Source of the DNA: Chloroflexota bacterium
GTDB taxonomy: Bacteria > Chloroflexota > Limnocylindria > P2-11E
Direction of reading: 5' to 3'
Assembly: GCA_031394155.1 (NCBI GenBank)
Contig: JANMWW010000307.1
Span: 1-36,764 of the forward strand
DNA length: 36,764 nt
Within the stretch, counting starts at the first letter, position 1; each line of letters begins with the position of its first letter. The position numbers and the translations under genes were made by a program. This document shows, one piece after another, positions 3,530 through 36,764 of this stretch. Below the pieces are notes generated by a model, which made no database searches, had not been told where the DNA came from, and worked only from the letters and a program-made list of their open reading frames with translations.

Positions 3530-4944
3530 CAGGCGAGCGACCGCCGCAACGCACTGCGCGCTCCGTGATAGCCGCACATGCCGTGCACTCCCCCGCCCGG
3601 CGGCGTCGCGGCGCTGCACAGCGTGATATCGCGCGCGCTGGTCGCGTATGGATCGAGCGCGATGCGCGGGCGCATCAGCAGCTGCAAGCGCGCGTGCGAG
3701 CCGTTCGCGATATCACCGCCGATGTTGTTCGCGTTCTCCCGCTCGACATCCGCGGGCGTCGACACGACGCGCTTGAGCACGCGCGTTTGGAATCCCGGCG
3801 CGAACCGTTCGATCTGCGCTTCGATGCGCCCGGTCATGTCGGTGGTCGAGCCGTTCGGCACGTGGCAGTACGCCCACAGCGTGTGCTTCCCGATCGGGGC
3901 TCGAGTGTCATCAAAGAGACTCTGCTGTCCCACGAGCACGAAAGGCCGTTCAGGGTGTCCTCCTCGCGAGACCTCGCGCTCGCTCGCGGCGATCTCGTCG
4001 AACGTGCCGCCCAGATGCACCGTGCCGGCGCGCAGACAGTCAGCGGCGCGCCACGGCACGGGTCCATCGAGTGCGTAATCGAGCTTGAACACACCCGGCC
4101 CGCGCCGATAGCGCAGCATCCTGCGCCGGTACGACGACGACAGCCGATCGCCCGCGATGAGCGCGAGTGCCGCAGGCGACGTGTCGAAGAGATACGCACG
4201 CGCCGGCGGCAGATCGCTCATCTGCTGAACGCGCCGGTCGGTGGTCACCGCGCCGCCGAGCGATGCGAGCTGCGACGCGAGCGCGTGCGCGATCTCGCCC
4301 GAGCCCTTTCGCGCGATCGGCCACCCCACCGCGTGTGCGGAGACGCCGAGGCTCAGAGCGAACGCGGCGGTGAACGGGTCGTCGAGGGGCAGGAACGAAT
4401 GCGCGGCGATCCCAGCAAGCAGCGCCGGTGCGCGATCGGCGCGAAATCGGCCGACGAGCGAGCGCGCGGAGCGCATCGCGCTGAGGCCGAATCGCGCGAG
4501 AAGGAGTGGATGCCTCGGAACATGACCGATCGGGCCAAGGATCTCATCGAACAGATCGCTCCACGAATCAACGAGAGGCGCCATGAGCGATGCGTATGCC
4601 GGGCCGTCTGCCCCGAGACTCCGGACCGTCGCATTGACCGATCGCTCGAGCACAATTGCCGACCCGTCATCAAGGGGGTGCGCAAGTGGCGCCTCGGGTT
4701 GAATCCACACGAGACCCTGCTCCTCCAGACGCAGCGCGCGGAAGAACGGCGACGCGGCACCCATCGGATGGAACGCCGAGCAGACGTCGTGGATGAAGCC
4801 GGGAAGCGTCAGCTCCGCGGAGCGCGCGCCTCCGCCGATGTCGTGATTGGCCTCGTAGACCGTGACGCTCCGGCCGGCACGCGCGAGAGTGATCGCCGCG
4901 GCGAGGCCGTTCGGCCCCGCGCCGACGACGACGGCATCAGGCAC
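3529..4944 (-). CDS. Phytoene desaturase-like NAD(P)/FAD-dependent oxidoreductase
   Basis: N-terminal VVVGAGPNGLAAA dinucleotide-binding motif. C-terminal CSAATPPGGGVHGMCG. GTG start at 4944 overlaps the stop of the upstream gene. Confidence 0.9.
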   Translation of the reverse strand: MPDAVVVGAGPNGLAAAITLARAGRSVTVYEANHDIGGGARSAELTLPGFIHDVCSAFHPMGAASPFFRALRLEEQGLVWIQPEAPLAHPLDDGSAIVLERSVNATVRSLGADGPAYASLMAPLVDSWSDLFDEILGPIGHVPRHPLLLARFGLSAMRSARSLVGRFRADRAPALLAGIAAHSFLPLDDPFTAAFALSLGVSAHAVGWPIARKGSGEIAHALASQLASLGGAVTTDRRVQQMSDLPPARAYLFDTSPAALALIAGDRLSSSYRRRMLRYRRGPGVFKLDYALDGPVPWRAADCLRAGTVHLGGTFDEIAASEREVSRGGHPERPFVLVGQQSLFDDTRAPIGKHTLWAYCHVPNGSTTDMTGRIEAQIERFAPGFQTRVLKRVVSTPADVERENANNIGGDIANGSHARLQLLMRPRIALDPYATSARDITLCSAATPPGGGVHGMCGYHGARSALRRSLA

Positions 4945-7747
4945 GCGCCCCCAGATAGCGGTCGAACCACTCGCTCGCGCGCCGCAGCGAATCGATCGCA
5001 TTCTCGCGCGTGCGGAACCCGTGGCCCTCGCCCTCGTACACGTGCTGGTCGAACGTCTTGCCGGCCTTGGCGAGGGCGTCGGTCATGAGCTTCGCCTCGC
5101 TCTGCGGCACGCGCGGATCGTTCGCTCCCTGCAGCACGAGCAGCGGCGCCTTGATCTTCGAGACGTGCGTGAGTGGGGAGCGATCGCGATACAGATCCGG
5201 CACCTTCGCCGGATCGCCGAGCTCTCGCTCGAGGTAGTCCTTCAGGTCACCGCGCGTCGTGTCGTGCAGCGTCTTCCACGAGACGACGCCGACGACCGAG
5301 ACGCCCGCGGCCCACACATCGGGCGCCTGCGTGAGGACCATCAGCGTCATGAATCCTCCGTAGCTGCCGCCGTACGCGCCGATGCGCCTCGGGTCGGCGA
5401 TGCCATCGCTCACCAGCCACTGCGCACCCTTCACGACGTCCTGCAGATCCTTGCCCCCCCAGTCGCCGCGGTTCGCTTCCTGGAATTCGCGGCCATAGCC
5501 GGTCGAGCCGCGGATGTTCGGCGCGAGCACGACGTAGCCGTTGTTCGCGAACCACTGCGATGCCCGGTCCCACCAGCGCAGGTGCTGCCCGGTCGGGCCG
5601 CCATGGATGTGCACGATCGCCGGCGGGAGCGCGCCGCCGCGGATCGCCTCGGCGTGCGGGACATACAGGAGCGCGGGGATCTCCCGTCCGTCCGCTCCTG
5701 GATACCGCACGTGCATCGGCTCAACGAGCGTCGCGGGGTCGATGGTCGCCGGAAGCGATCGCGTGAGTCGCTTCGGCGCGACCATGCGCTCACCGGTGAC
5801 GTACACGTCCCAGGGGTCGCGCGCGCCGGTCCAGAGGAACGCGACAAGGTCTGAGTCCGGACCGACATGCGCAGACGCGTGCACGCCGGGCCGGTCCGCG
5901 ACGGCGTGTGTCGCGTGGGACACGGCGAACACGCGGCGGACGGAGGTCGCGGACTCCTCGCTGTGGAGGTAGAGCAGGCCGCGGCCGTCGGGCCGCCAGG
6001 TGGGCTCGGTCTCGTCGTGGATGTTCTGCGTCAGGTACTCGATTTCGCCGACCGTGTCCCCTGTTGGATCGAGCTTCGCGATCGCGGGCTCGTAGCGGCC
6101 GCGCACGTTCGTCGTGAACGAGATGCGACCGCCGTCGGGCGAGAACGACGCGTGCTGTGATTCGCCATCCTTCCCCTGGCGCGTGTCGAGCATCGTGGCG
6201 GGGCCGCCGCCGGCAGACACGAGGTACGTCCCGACATTGGTCCGCGACTTTTCGCGGCGCGAGGCGAAGATGATCTTCCTGCCGTGTGGCGACCAGCGAG
6301 GCTGCAGGTCCTCATGCGATCCATCGGTGAGGGGGACACGAACGCCGCTCTTCACGTCGATGATGCTCACGCCGAAGCCGTTGCCGCCGACGTTCGAGAC
6401 GTAGGCGATGCGCTGCCCATCGGGCGACCAGGAGATGTCGCGGTGCGAGACGCTGGGCTCGTCCGTGATGTTGCGCTCCTGCTCGCCGGAGCGATCGACC
6501 ACCCAGATCGCCCAGCGCTCGTTGCCGCCTGTGTCACGAAGGAAGGCGAGCTGCTGTCCATCGGGCGACCAGCGGGGAGACACGCTTCGCTCCGTGCCGT
6601 CGGTGAGCTGATAGAGCGTTTCCTTCTCGATCGGCGCGCTGTAGATCTCGAAGTTGCCGGTCTTGTTCCAGCTGAACGCGACCTCGTCGCCCTGTGGCGA
6701 CAGATCGATCGCGCCGAAACTCCAGTCGACGTAGGGGGAGCCGACAAGATCCTCGATCGGCAGCCGCTTGAAGCGGGGGCCCAGCGGACGCGGCCGGTAG
6801 ACGCCCGCTACGCTCGCTTCGCTCGCTGAACGGGGGCCCCTCCCCCCGGGCACGATGTCGGCCACCGGATTCGCGATCGTCGTCGGCGGCCGCTCCGTGC
6901 CGTGCGCGTCCCAGTCCTCGGCGAACGGCTTCGGTCGCTTCGTCTCCTTCGGCGGTGCCACGCTCGCTCCGGGAGCGTCCCCATTGCCGGCTGCGGCCGG
7001 CGGCGTCGAGGGCACCGGCCGCTTCGCGTGCTCGATCAGATCGCGCGACTGCCGCGCGACCACGAGCGTGCTCGTGCCCATCGCGGCCTCGCGCGGCGCG
7101 GTCGCTTCGCGCGGGACGATCTTCTCGTTGTGCGCCATCAGGTTCTCGAGACGGCCCTTGTACGCGCGGTCCCAGGGCGGCGGGATGAGGATCGAGAACT
7201 GCTTCTTGGGCTTCGGCAGCTCGCGCTGCAGCTGGAGCAGTGTGTCCTTTCCGGCGTTCCACATCGGCGAGCGTCCCGCCGACAGGACCGCCGAGAACTC
7301 GAGCTCGATCAGCTCGTGCGCGGCGTCGGACGCGAGATCGAGGTCGCCACAGACGAGGACTCCGCCAGCCTTGCGCAGGAGGATGACCGTCGCGCCTTCG
7401 CCTCGTGTCCGCACGCGTATCGCGCGCGCGTCCGGCCGCAGGAGCTCGTCGTCTCCGAACACGACGTCTGGCTCGCCGCCGAGGGCCAGCGCGTCGTCCT
7501 TGTGCACCGCGATGCGCACGCCGAGCGCTTCACGAAATTTCTCCGCTTCCTTCGCGCGGGCCGCGTTCGTCGCGACGAGCAGCGATGGGCGGCCCGTGCC
7601 TTCGATGAGACGCGAAGCGCGCGGGCTGAAGGGTGGGATGTCGATGAGGAGATTGCCGCGAGCGAAGTCGTAGACGATGTACTGGCGCTCGTTCTCGAGC
7701 GGCTCGTACAGCTCGAAGATCCACGATCGAAGCTGATGGATATCCAC
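4937..7747 (-). CDS. S9 family (acylaminoacyl/prolyl oligo-) peptidase with PD40 beta-propeller, Pro-rich linker and N-terminal degenerate MBL-like domain
   Basis: WSPDG repeats, IHGGP, catalytic GGSYGG / GANDPRV / EGHGF. About 340 extra N-terminal residues. Confidence 0.9.
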   Translation of the reverse strand: MDIHQLRSWIFELYEPLENERQYIVYDFARGNLLIDIPPFSPRASRLIEGTGRPSLLVATNAARAKEAEKFREALGVRIAVHKDDALALGGEPDVVFGDDELLRPDARAIRVRTRGEGATVILLRKAGGVLVCGDLDLASDAAHELIELEFSAVLSAGRSPMWNAGKDTLLQLQRELPKPKKQFSILIPPPWDRAYKGRLENLMAHNEKIVPREATAPREAAMGTSTLVVARQSRDLIEHAKRPVPSTPPAAAGNGDAPGASVAPPKETKRPKPFAEDWDAHGTERPPTTIANPVADIVPGGRGPRSASEASVAGVYRPRPLGPRFKRLPIEDLVGSPYVDWSFGAIDLSPQGDEVAFSWNKTGNFEIYSAPIEKETLYQLTDGTERSVSPRWSPDGQQLAFLRDTGGNERWAIWVVDRSGEQERNITDEPSVSHRDISWSPDGQRIAYVSNVGGNGFGVSIIDVKSGVRVPLTDGSHEDLQPRWSPHGRKIIFASRREKSRTNVGTYLVSAGGGPATMLDTRQGKDGESQHASFSPDGGRISFTTNVRGRYEPAIAKLDPTGDTVGEIEYLTQNIHDETEPTWRPDGRGLLYLHSEESATSVRRVFAVSHATHAVADRPGVHASAHVGPDSDLVAFLWTGARDPWDVYVTGERMVAPKRLTRSLPATIDPATLVEPMHVRYPGADGREIPALLYVPHAEAIRGGALPPAIVHIHGGPTGQHLRWWDRASQWFANNGYVVLAPNIRGSTGYGREFQEANRGDWGGKDLQDVVKGAQWLVSDGIADPRRIGAYGGSYGGFMTLMVLTQAPDVWAAGVSVVGVVSWKTLHDTTRGDLKDYLERELGDPAKVPDLYRDRSPLTHVSKIKAPLLVLQGANDPRVPQSEAKLMTDALAKAGKTFDQHVYEGEGHGFRTRENAIDSLRRASEWFDRYLGARA
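6810..6847 (-). repeat. Short GA-hairpin element, copy 1 (in-frame in the S9 peptidase linker)
   Basis: Minus strand ggggggaggggcccccgttcagcgagcgaagcgagcgt, highly similar to 22514-22553. Confidence 0.8.
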
Positions 7748-7782: not shown

Positions 7783-8625
7783 TCAACGCGCCAGCTCCGG
7801 GAGCACCAGGAGCGTGTCCAGTCGGACGAGACCGCCGTCCGCTTCGACGCTCGCGATAGCGCGTTCGGTCCGATCGCTCTCCCAGTCGAAGAGACGCCCC
7901 ACTTTCTTCGGCGACACCCCACCGGCGAGCTCGATAAGCCGGCGCAGCACCGCGGCAACGGCTTCCGTCGAGGAGATCCCCTCCGCGGCCTTCACCGTTT
8001 CGGGATAGCGGCGCACGAACAGGTCGTAGGTGTAGTTGTAGTCGTCGCTGCGCTCCCCCACGGCCCTCACGCGCGCGACATACATGAGGCGCTGCAGCTC
8101 CTCGATCGCGTGCTCGAGACCGCCGCGGCCTTCCTTCGACTCGATGCCGAGGTCGGCGCGCATCCGCTTCTTCTGCGTCTCGCCGCGGTGCTGGAGGTAT
8201 TCGACGACGCGCCGGCCGAGATCGGTCAGCTTGCCGGCGCGCACATCCTCGAGGTGATCGTCCTCTTCACCGGCGCGACCGAAGGTCGCGTAGAAGGTCG
8301 GCAGCATCTTCATCGACACGAAGGTCGGCTTCTTCAACAGAAGCTTTCCGTAGTAGAGCTTCTTCGCCTCGGGCAGCTCGTCCTTCCACGGCCACATCCA
8401 CTCCCATTTCTTCCCGTCGTCGGTCGTGGAGAGGTGGTCGAAGCACGCGGGCACCGGGTACGAGGATTCGCCGCTGAACGCGAAGCAGAAGCCGACCGCG
8501 TCGACCATCGCGACCAGCTGCGTGGCGTTGCGAACGCGATGCGCGCGCTCGATCTTCTCGCGATGCGATGCGAGGACCGCCGCGATGTCCGGCGCCGCAC
8601 GCTTTGGCCGGGTGATGAGCTTCAT
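7783..8625 (-). CDS. AlkZ/YcaQ-related winged-helix protein (putative DNA-binding or repair)
   Basis: ATG at 8625. W-x-WKDELP...YYGKL...PTFVS motif and a wHTH-like middle region, recalled as AlkZ-related; not verified by search. Confidence 0.55.
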   Translation of the reverse strand: MKLITRPKRAAPDIAAVLASHREKIERAHRVRNATQLVAMVDAVGFCFAFSGESSYPVPACFDHLSTTDDGKKWEWMWPWKDELPEAKKLYYGKLLLKKPTFVSMKMLPTFYATFGRAGEEDDHLEDVRAGKLTDLGRRVVEYLQHRGETQKKRMRADLGIESKEGRGGLEHAIEELQRLMYVARVRAVGERSDDYNYTYDLFVRRYPETVKAAEGISSTEAVAAVLRRLIELAGGVSPKKVGRLFDWESDRTERAIASVEADGGLVRLDTLLVLPELAR

Positions 8626-21435: not shown

Positions 21436-22668
21436 TCACGCGGAGGGGATCACGCCGAGGGAACGCCCGACCCTGGTGAACGCCGCGATCGCGCGGTCGA
21501 CGTGCTCCGGCTCGTGCGCGGCGGACAGCTGCACACGAATGCGCGCTTGATCGCGCGGCACTACCGGGAACGAGAACGCGATGACGTAGATGCCTTCGTC
21601 GAGGAGCCGGTCGGCCATCGTGGACGCGAGCTTCGCGTCGCCGAGCATGACCGGGACGATGGGATGCTCGCCCGGCACGAGACGGAAGCCCGCCTTCGTC
21701 ATCCCCGCGCGAAAACGCGCGGCATTCGCGACGAGCCGTTCGCGCAGATCGTTCGCCGATTCGAGCAGATCCAGCACGGCGATCGACGTCGCGGCGATGA
21801 CGGGCGCCAGCGTGTTGGAGAAGAGGTATGGCCGGCTGCGCTGCCGCAGGAGCTCGACGATCTCCTTGCGACCGCTCGTGTAGCCACCCGATGCGCCACC
21901 GAGCGCCTTCCCGAGCGTGCCGGTGAGGATGTCCACGCGCCCCATGACACCGCGAGCCTCGTGCGAGCCGCGACCGCCCTTACCCATGAACCCCACGCCG
22001 TGCGAGTCGTCGACGAACACGAGCGCGCCGTGCTTGTCCGCGAGATCGCAGATCGCGGGCAGGTCCGCGAGGGTGCCGTCCATCGAGAACACGCCGTCCG
22101 TCGCGATGAGCTTGAAGCGCGCATCCTTCGCGGCCTCGAGCTGCTTTGCGAGATCGGCCATGTCGTTGTTGGCGTAGCGGAAACGCTTCGCCTTCGAGAG
22201 ACGGATCCCGTCGATGATGCTCGCGTGGTTGAGCGAGTCGCTGATCACCGCATCCTCTTCACCCAGGATCGTCTCGAACAGTCCCCCGTTCGCGTCGAAG
22301 CATGAGCCGTAGAGGATGGTGTCTTCCGTGCCGAGGAACCGCGTGAGCCGACCCTCGAGCTCCTTATGGATGTCCTGGGTGCCGCAGATGAAGCGCACTG
22401 ACGACATGCCGTAGCCCCAGCGATCCAGCGCGGCGTGCGCGGCCCGTAGGACCACAGGATGGTCTGAGAGACCGAGGTAGTTGTTCGCGCAAAAGTTGAT
22501 GACCTCAAACTGCAGGGGCAGGGGCCCGTGTTCAGCCGAGCGAAGCGAGGCGTGTACGCGGATCTCGGCGCCCTGCGGCGACGTGATGATCCGCTCCTTC
22601 TTGTAGAGCCCGGCCTCGCGGATCTGGCTGATCTGCTCGTCCAGGCTGTCGAGGAAGCGCCGGTCCAT
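21436..22668 (-). CDS. kbl: Glycine C-acetyltransferase (2-amino-3-ketobutyrate CoA ligase)
   Basis: [28 protein letters not shown] (PLP lysine) and [13 protein letters not shown] at 22668. Confidence 0.97.
22514..22553 (+). repeat. Short GA-hairpin element, copy 2 (in-frame insertion in kbl)
   Basis: aggggcaggggcccgtgttcagccgagcgaagcgaggcgt matches 6810-6847. On the kbl strand it encodes most of [14 protein letters not shown]. Confidence 0.8.
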
Positions 22669-22717
22669 CGCGGGCATCATCGCCCGTCGGCCCGTGACTT
22701 GCACGCGGCCGCCCTGC

Positions 22718-36326: not shown

Positions 36327-36419
36327 GCGAGCGAGTCGCGGCTTTGCCGCGATGAGCGAGTCGACGAGCGGAGTCGAGGCGGCGAGGCGCAGGCCGCCCG
36401 AAGGCGGGCCGAGCCGAGC
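36327..36419 (+). repeat. Intergenic cluster of hairpins with tandem GA/GA mismatches (REP-like; may also act as terminator)
   Basis: gc-ga-gc-ga-g-tcgcggc-ttt-gccgcga-t-ga-gc-ga-gt and gc-ga-ggc-gca-ggccgcc-cgaa-ggcgggcc-ga-gcc-ga-gc. Confidence 0.65.
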
Positions 36420-36427
36420 GCGAAGAA

Positions 36428-36764
36428 CTAGAAGGGCCCGGCGAGCTCCGGCGGCGCAAAGAGGTAGCACGGCGACTGCCACCACTGGTCGACGGCTTCG
36501 CCACGCACCTGCTTGAGGAGTGCGGCGATCGTGTCCGGCGGCTGACCGCCCGCGGCCGCGAGGACGACGATCTTTCCGGCGCGGAGCGCGGCTCCATACC
36601 GCTTGCGGATCTCCTTCGGTAGTCCGCGTCCCGGCGTGACCTTCGCGAGGAGCTTCGCCAGCATGATCCGGATCCCGCCCCATTTCTTGAACGGGACCCA
36701 CGCGCGATCACCCGCGATCAGCGCAGCGCGCTCGGGGTCCGCCGCGATGACCGAGATGTCCTGC
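36428..36764 (-). CDS. 5'-partial hypothetical protein, possibly general-stress (YflT-like) fold
   Basis: Frame is open to the window edge: QDISVIAAD...GLPKEIRKRYGAALRAGKIVV. Confidence 0.6.
   Translation of the reverse strand, partial: QDISVIAADPERAALIAGDRAWVPFKKWGGIRIMLAKLLAKVTPGRGLPKEIRKRYGAALRAGKIVVLAAAGGQPPDTIAALLKQVRGEAVDQWWQSPCYLFAPPELAGPF

Follow-up and report, generated by a model that had tools for sequence, protein, structure and literature searches.

The window, i.e., the whole 36,764-nucleotide stretch of DNA analyzed here, contains two copies of a 36-nt repeat that, with a probability of about 0.8, belong to a lineage-specific, non-coding, REP-like DNA repeat family that has proliferated within a single genus of “Ca. 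Limnocylindria” (Chloroflexota). One copy lies within the gene for 2-amino-3-ketobutyrate CoA ligase (kbl) and the other within a gene for an S9-family peptidase. Palindromic repeats that invade genes are already known from other bacteria, and the 36-nt repeat is a miniature version of these; its behavior is that of DNA and not that of an encoded peptide or mRNA signal. The source genome of the window, designated G000, is a 2.58-Mb metagenome-assembled genome (MAG).

Both copies were detected with a covariance model (R1) and nhmmer. The kbl copy occupies positions 22513 to 22554 of the forward strand; its first hairpin (H1; CAGGGG-CAGGGG-CCCGTG) spans 22513 to 22530, while the second (H2; 22533 to 22554) includes a GCGAAGC mini-hairpin at 22540 to 22546 and one extra C-G pair, with the conserved 3' CGTG at 22551 to 22554. 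The S9 copy lies at 6809 to 6850 of the reverse strand and has a 36-nt core at 6813 to 6848 (H1 at 6831 to 6848, H2 core at 6813 to 6828) between a 5' CC (6849 to 6850) and a 3' CGTA (6809 to 6812). The two copies show 84% mean column identity when aligned. With filters turned off, R1 detected the kbl and S9 copies in the window at E = 4.1e-15 and 3.5e-11, respectively, the next match having E = 0.1. An earlier note on this DNA had described two copies in opposite orientation relative to their host genes, encoding different peptides and differing by a compensatory pair of indels. Our analysis bears this out: both sequences were recovered within 1 to 3 nt of where the note had placed them, and both host genes are on the reverse strand, which places the repeat antisense to kbl and sense to the peptidase gene. 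The translations also agree with the note (that of the S9 copy is GGRGPRSASEAS), and the kbl copy does carry an extra C and an extra G, which lengthen H2 by 1 bp. The orthologous kbl copy of another genome, G017, has the identical pair of extra bases.

The repeat unit consists of two unlike hairpins, H1 (C[R]GGGG-NAGGGG-CCCC[Y]G) and H2, a GC-GA-GC-GNA-GC-GA-GC mini-hairpin followed by CGTG. In an alignment of 51 distinct copies, 97.6% of the cells were paired, and the covariation score was matched by none of 500 shuffles. One H1 pair was found as A-U in 30 copies, G-C in 18, G-U in 1, and another combination in 2, and one H2 pair as G-C in 46, C-G in 2, A-U in 1, and another combination in 1. 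Covariation was also computed on the set of 11 copies from G000. Both hairpins carry compensatory changes, and the structural conservation suspected from the two window copies extends across the family. Part of the covariation could come from the descent of two subfamilies. The H2 loop reads G-N-A in 38 of the 44 parsed copies, N being any of the four bases; the apex is accordingly GCGNAGC in 38 of 44, and GCGGCAGC in one. GCGNAGC is a mini-hairpin DNA motif (PMC13037366); in that literature, GCGNAGC and GCGNNAGC are synthetic or phage-origin oligonucleotides rather than a genomic repeat family. The predicted folding energies of single copies were no better than those of shuffled sequences (z from -1.6 to +1.05), so it is covariation and not stability that makes the structural case. 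The unit has no fixed stop codon in five of its six reading frames, and 36 nt correspond to 12 codons.

The earlier note had proposed a non-autonomous element with further genomic copies. The unit is indeed too small to encode anything, and nhmmer finds 11 copies in G000 at E < 0.1; R1 recovers the identical 11, all at E ≤ 3.8e-6. R1 matches are present in all 24 genomes searched of the genus, with best E-values reaching 3e-13 and with 1 to 56 copies per genome; copy numbers peak in G012 (56) and G003 (28), the other genomes having 1 to 12. Among genome representatives, an exact 30-position pattern was found in 27 stretches, only in MAG records of Chloroflexi/Limnocylindria, and another 79 stretches came from metagenomes. 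In total, the genomes and metagenomes yielded 111 unique copies in 69 flank clusters. The host group comprises uncultured soil bacteria. Searches of Rfam 15 gave no match at the gathering score, either in the window or in eight loci of the long intergenic form described below. The copies do not form a CRISPR-type array; they are single and dispersed, with at most two to three per 1.4 kb, inside the mosaic repeat.

The host genes are confirmed by Pfam. kbl (21436 to 22680, reverse strand; 414 codons counted from the ATG at 22680) encodes an Aminotran_1_2 protein (E = 1.5e-67), and its best solved relative is the 2-amino-3-ketobutyrate CoA ligase 3tqx_A (E = 1.1e-170), which has a 13-residue gap facing the insert. 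In the orthologue alignment, the insert stands in place of a short V-xPxx-E turn close to the N-terminus. An AlphaFold2 model of Kbl, built from a 10-row alignment of close orthologues, had a mean pLDDT of 43, which is too low to place the loop; its placement was therefore taken from the sequence alignment to 3tqx_A. The S9-family peptidase gene (4937 to 7747, reverse strand; start codon uncertain) encodes a PD40 propeller and a Peptidase_S9 domain (E = 1.2e-59), with the insert in an Ala/Pro-rich linker preceding the propeller. Together with copies in ileS, uvrC, dnaE, and an acyl-CoA-synthetase-like gene (acs), the in-gene copies occupy variable surface loops and linkers.

Comparison with orthologues showed that the insert-free state is the rule, with 20 of 22 kbl, 23 of 24 S9, and 23 of 24 uvrC orthologues lacking an insert at the respective site. 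The idea that the element colonizes tolerant loops, for which the earlier note had suggested looking at relatives, is upheld by these alignments, in which the inserts fall in loops and linkers of variable length and sequence. Each of the compared genomes is a MAG from a different species, and the relatives with empty sites are only 65 to 91% identical. Presence/absence polymorphism of a copy within one strain was not observed. The kbl insert is common to G000 and G017 only, and the kbl copy is inferred to be older than the split between these two genomes. In the S9 gene, the insert is private to G000 among 24 aligned rows and adds exactly 12 residues (36 nt), while G016 alone has a separate 12-residue insert at another linker position. 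The uvrC insert was found in G000 only. Among the 21 ileS orthologues, those of G000, G003, and G012 have an insert in antisense orientation and that of G008 has one in sense orientation; the closest relative, G019 (91% identity), has an empty site. The dnaE linker occurs in several distinct states. Thus, ileS, the S9 gene, and dnaE have each been struck repeatedly by independent insertions. Where orthologues share an in-gene copy, its conservation does not consistently exceed that of the flanks: agreement is 39/40 versus 86% for kbl, 34/38 versus 81% for acs, and 31/38 versus 82% for ileS. Four sequencing runs were compared as contigs, accepted from 88% likeness and probably from other species. 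Positions 22508 to 22555 are replaced by 12 other letters (36 nt shorter) in one X5 contig and positions 22505 to 22560 by 23 letters in one X3 contig. Hence relatives without the kbl insert are present in those samples, which is not the same as polymorphism within a strain.

In most pairs, the net gain is exactly 36 nt. When copies of other genomes were compared with G000, a 36-nt gap was observed in 7 of 11 pairs and a 33-nt gap in one; the remaining three pairs (L074, L077, and L028 versus G000) aligned untidily and were left out of the 36-nt cases. A gain of 36 nt was also seen at both S9 sites, in uvrC, and in ileS. The insert usually lies directly 3' of a CC dinucleotide, which is already there in about 10 of 11 empty sites. 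Neither end of the unit (CRGGGG... and ...GCGAGCGTG) is an inverted version of the other, i.e., there are no terminal inverted repeats, and the target duplication that the earlier note had thought worth looking for was absent at S9, uvrC, ileS, and the seven clean pairs. The 3' end of the unit reads CGTG, CGTA, CGCA, or CGTC, and in the four bases that follow the junction there is no consistent agreement with the empty sites. In the near-identical pair L076 versus G000, the bases flanking the insert on both sides differ from the empty site. From these alignments, noisy as they are, four target bases 3' of the junction appear to be replaced by the CGTG of the element. At the second S9 site, the 36-nt gap has alternative placements one C apart.

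Insertions in variable loops or linkers probably survive selection because they introduce neither a frameshift nor an added stop. As for the spread of the unit, the hairpins may form on single-stranded DNA, and an enzyme or a replication process may use them to copy the unit elsewhere, although this is less likely than not. The single-stranded step is suggested indirectly by the GCGNAGC loop signature and by the retention of the hairpins in both orientations relative to transcription.

A possible, if rather doubtful, route requires no transposase at all. A replication fork stalled by the hairpins would undergo microhomology-primed template switching, or short-patch gene conversion would take place, and the unit with a few flanking bases would be written into sites whose first bases resemble those of the element (CC-CGG...). 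Searches for a dedicated enzyme, which covered Y1, reverse transcriptase, IS110, and TnpB-like genes, returned no such candidate, in keeping with this route. The reverse transcriptase family RVT_1 (PF00078) was found in none of five genomes, a point of difference from retrons and other RT-dependent elements. IS110 genes are present in only three of the five genomes, and a TnpB-like gene exceeded the cut-off in one of five; in neither case does the element lie beside the gene, and R1 with filters off gave nothing better than E = 0.05 at six IS110/TnpB-like loci. The bases adjacent to the insert become the flanks of the element (CC...CGTG) while the net gain is still 36 nt, and many empty sites resemble its 5' end (CCCGG in kbl and dnaE, CCC|GTG in S9). 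Repeated insertion into the same loops of S9, ileS, and dnaE, as well as the frequent location of copies within the loops of other hairpins, also fits. On the other hand, microhomologies of 2 to 5 nt alone would not yield a constant length, and the copy bursts of G012 and G003 look more like episodic activity of an enzyme.

Such an enzyme is unlikely to be a Y1 HUH transposase (RAYT or TnpA) that would recognize the hairpins on single-stranded DNA and insert the unit on the 3' side of a short target motif, as in classical REP/REPIN systems or IS200/IS605-type miniatures. The two sub-terminal hairpins, the lack of both inverted terminal repeats and target duplication, the pre-existing CC conserved on one side only, the loops of the DNA mini-hairpin type, and the precedent of 20- to 40-bp REPs inside genes (PMC3733652) would all suit this route. 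However, the HUH/RAYT/IS200-type nuclease that the earlier note had envisaged did not turn up: none of the 26 genomes searched from the genus, 6 of which are at least 90% complete, contained PF01797, while the control search was positive in 6 of 14 reference genomes. Moreover, the base at the would-be T of the GTAG tag is unconstrained (G, C, T, or A), a net gain of 36 nt despite 40 to 42 conserved nucleotides is not predicted by simple peel-and-paste, and an exact-match search of viral contigs gave no copy.

That the sequence is selected for the function of its product, be it a linker peptide or an mRNA structure tuning translation or stability, so that it is recurrent but not mobile, is highly improbable. 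All five non-coding copies of G000 do lie just upstream of, and co-directionally with, a gene; one of them has mutated to a Shine-Dalgarno-like GAAGGAGG five bases ahead of an ATG, and the long intergenic form has ATGA stop/start overlaps and AGGA close to the next start. However, in-gene copies give unrelated peptides: a GC3/open-frame test assigned 22 of the 69 clusters to coding sequence, spread over five frame classes and either orientation; the test is heuristic, filed at least one 22-member long-form cluster wrongly as coding, and picked the wrong strand for a DUF58 copy. Insert-free orthologues prevail for kbl, S9, and uvrC, Rfam offers no known RNA, and antisense copies, whose RNA would have neither the G.A pairs nor the GNA loop, retain the pairing all the same. 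Stem covariation persists even at the cost of paired amino acid changes (EQGPLPL versus ERGPLPP). Because of this covariation, and because copies of the element occur in either orientation and in five of six frames, we conclude that it acts as DNA. An assembly or binning artifact or a chance similarity is refuted for practical purposes by orthologous copies in independent MAGs (kbl in G000 and G017, acs in L003 and L069, ileS in four assemblies), by reading frames that remain open, and by the low E-values, even though the element does disturb assembly, as seen in the Logan assemblies and in G012, whose contigs often terminate at it.

The closest known counterparts of the repeat are REPs. According to Di Nocera et al. 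(2013; PMC3733652), GTAG- and CGTC-tagged REPs are structured repeats of 20 to 40 bp in families of tens to thousands, and intragenic REP-like elements have already been described, which lowers the novelty of the 36-nt repeat. The latter is likewise short, structured, high-copy, mostly extragenic, and part of mosaic intergenic clusters, and its in-gene hosts include uvrC, dnaE, and ileS. REPs of Thermomicrobium roseum, a member of the Chloroflexi, sit within small palindromes, much as other hairpins may hold the 36-nt core in their loops; the CGTC-tagged families have no dedicated transposase, and none was found for the 36-nt repeat either. In contrast to these REPs, which have one stem-loop, the 36-nt unit has two unlike hairpins and no conserved GTAG or CGTC tag (the position reads G-N-A-G, N being any base), and its 3' end follows a stem architecture different from that of the CGTC families (PMC3733652). 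It is also rarely found in head-to-head dimers, has no RAYT in 26 genomes, and has a fixed length divisible by three (36 nt, or 30 nt in its sister form).

Other elements are more distant. Mitochondrial double-hairpin elements and GC clusters are likewise built of two adjacent G+C-rich hairpins and are dispersed, apparently mobile, and located both intergenically and in coding regions, but they are organellar and unrelated in sequence and are not known from Chloroflexota. The Rickettsia palindromic element RPE-1 measures about 100 to 150 bp; the 36-nt repeat is, like such elements, an in-frame insert in genes, but it is much shorter and unrelated in sequence, and the RPE host is an obligate intracellular alphaproteobacterium. 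These palindromic elements lie in frame within genes that are still functional (PMC3733652). The repeat resembles IS200/IS605-derived PATEs in part, having hairpins near both ends, a short conserved motif on one flank (CC 5' of the insert in most copies and most empty sites), and neither terminal inverted repeats nor target-site duplications. It differs from them in being far shorter, in having no Y1 transposase in the 26 genomes searched, and in the inferred replacement of four target bases, which PATEs do not show. MITEs differ in having terminal inverted repeats of 15 to 30 bp and a target-site duplication.

It is tempting, although decidedly doubtful, to see in the family a hairpin micro-transposon of a new class, or else a repeat that copies itself without a transposase, with 36- and 30-nt units tuned to codon length and four target bases replaced. 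If so, each insertion would add exactly 12 (or 10) codons, and essential genes such as ileS, dnaE, and uvrC would have been colonized without a Y1 HUH enzyme. More generally, the repeat would show that even very small structured elements can reshape core enzyme loops in soil bacteria with a free-living habit, beyond Rickettsia and organelles, and that a repeat family can thrive in the absence of the usual REP transposase. Conserved genes offer many filled and empty sites that arose independently, and these provide a clean natural system for studying the movement of such elements and permit a test of element-level selection for codon-length units. In practical terms, the repeat breaks short-read assemblies, and added loops of 12 residues are to be expected by annotators and structure predictors of Limnocylindria proteins.

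Outside genes, the 36-nt core doubles as a module of an intergenic mosaic repeat of about 140 nt, and the 30-nt sister form is dispersed through the order. The window itself has an intergenic module of a related mosaic repeat at 36327 to 36440 of the forward strand, immediately 3' of a stop codon; it contains no core and reads GAGCGAGTCGCGG-CTTTG-CCGCGATGAGCGAGTC, followed by more GNA-loop hairpins.

The genome of the window (G000) is a 2.58-Mb MAG of 398 contigs and 67% G+C, in which the window is contig C60. Two related hairpin sequences that an earlier note had recognized in the window were confirmed at 22513-22554 (+), within kbl, and at 6809-6850 (-), within an S9 peptidase gene, and align at 84% identity. 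Both host genes lie on the minus strand (Pfam: Aminotran_1_2, E = 1.5e-67, for kbl; a PD40 propeller for the S9 gene), and therefore the element runs antisense to kbl and sense to the S9 gene; the opposite orientations and different peptides described earlier were thus borne out, the peptides being those stated. Against its best solved relative, the 2-amino-3-ketobutyrate CoA ligase 3tqx_A (E = 1.1e-170), Kbl has 13 additional residues precisely at the element, where extra residues had been claimed. The overall reading of the earlier note, a micro-element that colonizes coding sequence, was essentially right.

The genome-wide covariance-model search suggested earlier (R1, model of the 36-nt element) detected 11 copies in G000, all at E <= 3.8e-6 (next match, 1.7e-3), identical to those found with nhmmer seeded with four copies (E < 0.1), on which R1 had been built. 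On the window, the two copies alone score (4e-15 and 3.5e-11; next, 0.1). All 24 other genomes of the genus contain R1 matches, 1 to 56 per genome, with the highest counts in G012 (56) and G003 (28), while other families of the class gave only weak matches; counts including G022 (and, for the order-wide R2 count below, also G053, G063, G065, and G086) involve unpublished genomes, and no claim rests solely on these. De-duplication left 111 unique copies in 69 clusters with distinct flanks. Searching with an exact 30-position pattern gave 79 stretches from metagenomes, none from the viral contigs searched, and 27 from species-representative genomes, whose titles all name MAGs of Chloroflexi, Chloroflexota, or “Ca. 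Limnocylindria.”

The consensus, CC|C[R]GGGG-N-AGGGG-CCCC[Y]G-TT-CAGCGAGCG-N-AGCGAG|CGTG, comprises two hairpins. In the first (H1), C[R]GGGG pairs with CCCC[Y]G; among 51 distinct copies the R/Y pair is A-U in 30, G-C in 18, G-U in 1, and other in 2, and the outer pair is switched from C-G to G-C twice. In the second (H2), GC-GA-GC-GNA-GC-GA-GC, the inner G-C pair is A-U once and C-G twice. A further C and a further G, found in the kbl copy and in its orthologue in G017, lengthen the stem by one base pair, so that the indel is compensatory as had been proposed. The loop of H2 has the form G-N-A in 38 of the 44 copies parsed (GAA 22, GCA 10, GGA 4, GTA 2) and GGCA in one; GCGNAGC and GCGNNAGC are named as “mini-hairpin DNA” motifs in PMC13037366. 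Paired cells amount to 97.6% in the 51 copies, and the covariation score was reached by 0 of 500 shuffles; single-copy folding energies were no better than those of shuffles. The A-T/G-C split may partly be inheritance within two subfamilies.

Six of the 11 G000 copies lie inside genes, with hosts confirmed by Pfam. The sense copies in the S9 peptidase and in an AMP-binding/PP-binding/acyltransferase protein both encode PGGRGPRSASEASV, and that in uvrC, sense in a different frame from S9, encodes QGEGPLFSERSER; the antisense copies yield a 14-residue peptide in kbl, ATLASLAERGLLPPG in a DUF58 protein, and GTLAALEKQGPLRL in ileS. Antisense peptides of the copies listed contain EQGPLPL or ERGPLPP and never mixed forms: a paired stem change is seen as paired amino acid changes, as expected under DNA-level constraint. 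By a GC3/open-frame heuristic, which misfiles a few cases, 22 of the 69 clusters are in coding sequence, in both orientations and five frame classes; the sixth frame contains TGA. The remaining five G000 copies are directly upstream of thrC-like, MBL-fold, serA, membrane-protein, and DUF885 genes, each in the orientation of the downstream gene (5/5). The copy ahead of DUF885 (L009:3623-3664; G000 C387:6622-6663 +) has a diverged H2, GAAGGAGG, five bases before the ATG, and by its sequence looks like the ribosome-binding site of that gene. Another copy (L008:3959-4002; G000 C283:6958-7001 -) has a partial additional H1 upstream and an additional H2 downstream, whose terminal GTG is likely the start of a membrane protein without a Pfam match.

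Alignment of orthologues, as advocated earlier, revealed empty sites for kbl, S9, uvrC, and ileS. The kbl insert is confined to G000 and G017 among 22 orthologues, 19 of which have a short V-xPxx-E turn as the empty state, in one case longer by a residue. At exactly this site G002 Kbl (L039) has a longer, unrelated-looking loop, SGGERSEAHGE, possibly the remnant of a copy that has decayed or lost part of its sequence. Among 24 aligned S9 rows, the 12-residue insert at the window site is found only in G000, and in G016, but in no other row, 12 residues from the element lie at another point of the linker, where the empty site of several genomes, CCC|GTGCC, is filled as CCC-[36 nt]-GTGCC. Compared with window 7107-7708, another Limnocylindria MAG (L060) has a third, antisense S9 insert, GTLAPLAERGPLPPG, in the N-terminal part, where the window is empty. 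The uvrC insert occurs in G000 only (1 of 24; +36 nt versus the closest relatives), and the antisense ileS insert (+36 nt) is common to G000, G003, and G012, while the closest relative, G019 (91% identity), has an empty site and G008 carries a sense copy, offset by a few codons. For 11 in-gene copies of other genomes compared with G000 (blastn and MAFFT), the gap was 36 nt in seven, 33 nt in one, and untidy in three. In every case examined the insertion site is a loop or linker variable among orthologues, in agreement with the earlier claim that the element settles at tolerant loops. The kbl copies of G000 and G017 are identical at 39 of 40 positions (coding flank, 86%), the acs copies at 34 of 38 (81%), and the ileS copies at 31 of 38 (82%); therefore, in-gene copies mostly decay like their surroundings. 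Both A-T and G-C versions of the covarying pair are present in the ileS set.

Neither inverted ends nor the target duplication that the earlier note had considered was seen at the junctions compared. Independent in-gene copies are mostly bounded by CC at the 5' side and CGTG(G) at the 3' side; about 10 of the 11 empty sites have this CC to begin with, and the four bases that empty sites have 3' of the junction are unlike CGTG except at the second S9 site, so about 40 conserved bases arrive for a net gain of 36. Either insertion replaces four target bases, or it uses only targets that already read CC^CGTG and the relatives diverged later, the genomes compared being 65 to 91% identical. For L076 and G000, a near-identical pair, the insert is flanked on either side by bases that differ from the empty site.

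The Y1 HUH family (RAYT, IS200/IS605 TnpA), to which the earlier note had pointed, was found in 0 of 26 genomes, six of them at least 90% complete, with a control search positive in 6 of 14 reference genomes. Reverse transcriptase was not found in five genomes searched; three of the five have IS110 genes and one has a TnpB-like gene, with the element not nearby. GNA loops, one-strand-only G.A pairs, and pairing kept in both orientations to transcription suggest that the hairpins may form on single-stranded DNA. Spread without a transposase, through template switching or the conversion of short patches where a site begins like the element, fits the altered flanks and the repeated hits, but is not enough to explain why the length is constant.

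The closest known shape is that of mitochondrial double-hairpin elements, and Rickettsia RPEs are the classical case of in-frame insertion. REPs of 20 to 40 bp are reported from >80 species, Chloroflexi included, with T. roseum REPs inserted within small palindromes and CGTC-tagged REPs lacking a dedicated transposase (Di Nocera et al. 2013, PMC3733652). The Limnocylindria element behaves alike but lacks both the GTAG and the CGTC tag, no RAYT was found, and its two hairpins are unlike. Our literature searches returned no report tying Limnocylindria or Chloroflexota to such elements. In-gene REP-like behavior is already known, and the two-hairpin, tag-less form is a variant; notable are its exact 12-codon unit (10 codons in a sister form), its mini-hairpin architecture, the repeated and independent hits to essential genes, and the lack of a known mobilizer among the genomes searched.

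Many intergenic copies sit within a mosaic repeat of ~110 to 140 nt, (T)GAGCGAsGAGCGG-CT-[core]-CGTGCG-CGAsGAGCGA-..CCACCAGCCwTGAGCGTGTCTCC-[GNA-loop hairpin]-GGAGATTGAGCAGG, which is located between a stop codon and the following start, frequently with ATGA overlaps and AGGA close ahead of the start. It is reminiscent of BIMEs and of mycobacterial MIRUs. A core-less mosaic, in which the hairpin GCGGC-TNT-GCCGC occupies the position of the core, is common in G000 (one such module is window 36327-36440 +). Cores of both orientations are also found within the loop of the mosaic's third hairpin, and the core occurs in other small palindromes. Further mosaic sites are at L013, L015, L018, and L022 and on G000 contigs C22, C40, C90, C92, C124, C134, C162, and C383; the modules (GAGCGAsGAGCGG hairpin, CCACCAGCCwTGAGCGTGTCTCC, GNA-loop hairpin, and GAGATTGAGCAGG) often contain small ORFs.

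The weak R1 matches in the sister family are a form of ~30 nt, with an identical H1 followed by GCGC-GNA-GCGC. G000 has six copies (C82:3359-3403 -, C82:~6200-6244 -, C255:20964-21009 +, C277:~1500 +, C366:2200-2245 +, and C150:~8112-8157 -), one of which lies within dnaE. A model of this form (R2) has matches in 53 of the 94 genomes from the order, among them 21 of the 22 from another genus. The PHP-to-core linker of dnaE (DNA polymerase III alpha; after IGPGG, L268-L289) is a repeated landing site, for which 22 orthologues show at least three states: the 30-nt form (G000, G013, G003), a decayed antisense 36-nt form (five genomes, one with a double insert, G001), and short and empty (eight or more genomes). 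Contigs of G012 end at or adjoining an element (C80:4364-4409 and C193:196-241), its dnaE being split across two contigs, and a contig of the sequencing-run assembly X3 ends at window 6797, at or beside the element; the repeat therefore fragments short-read assemblies.
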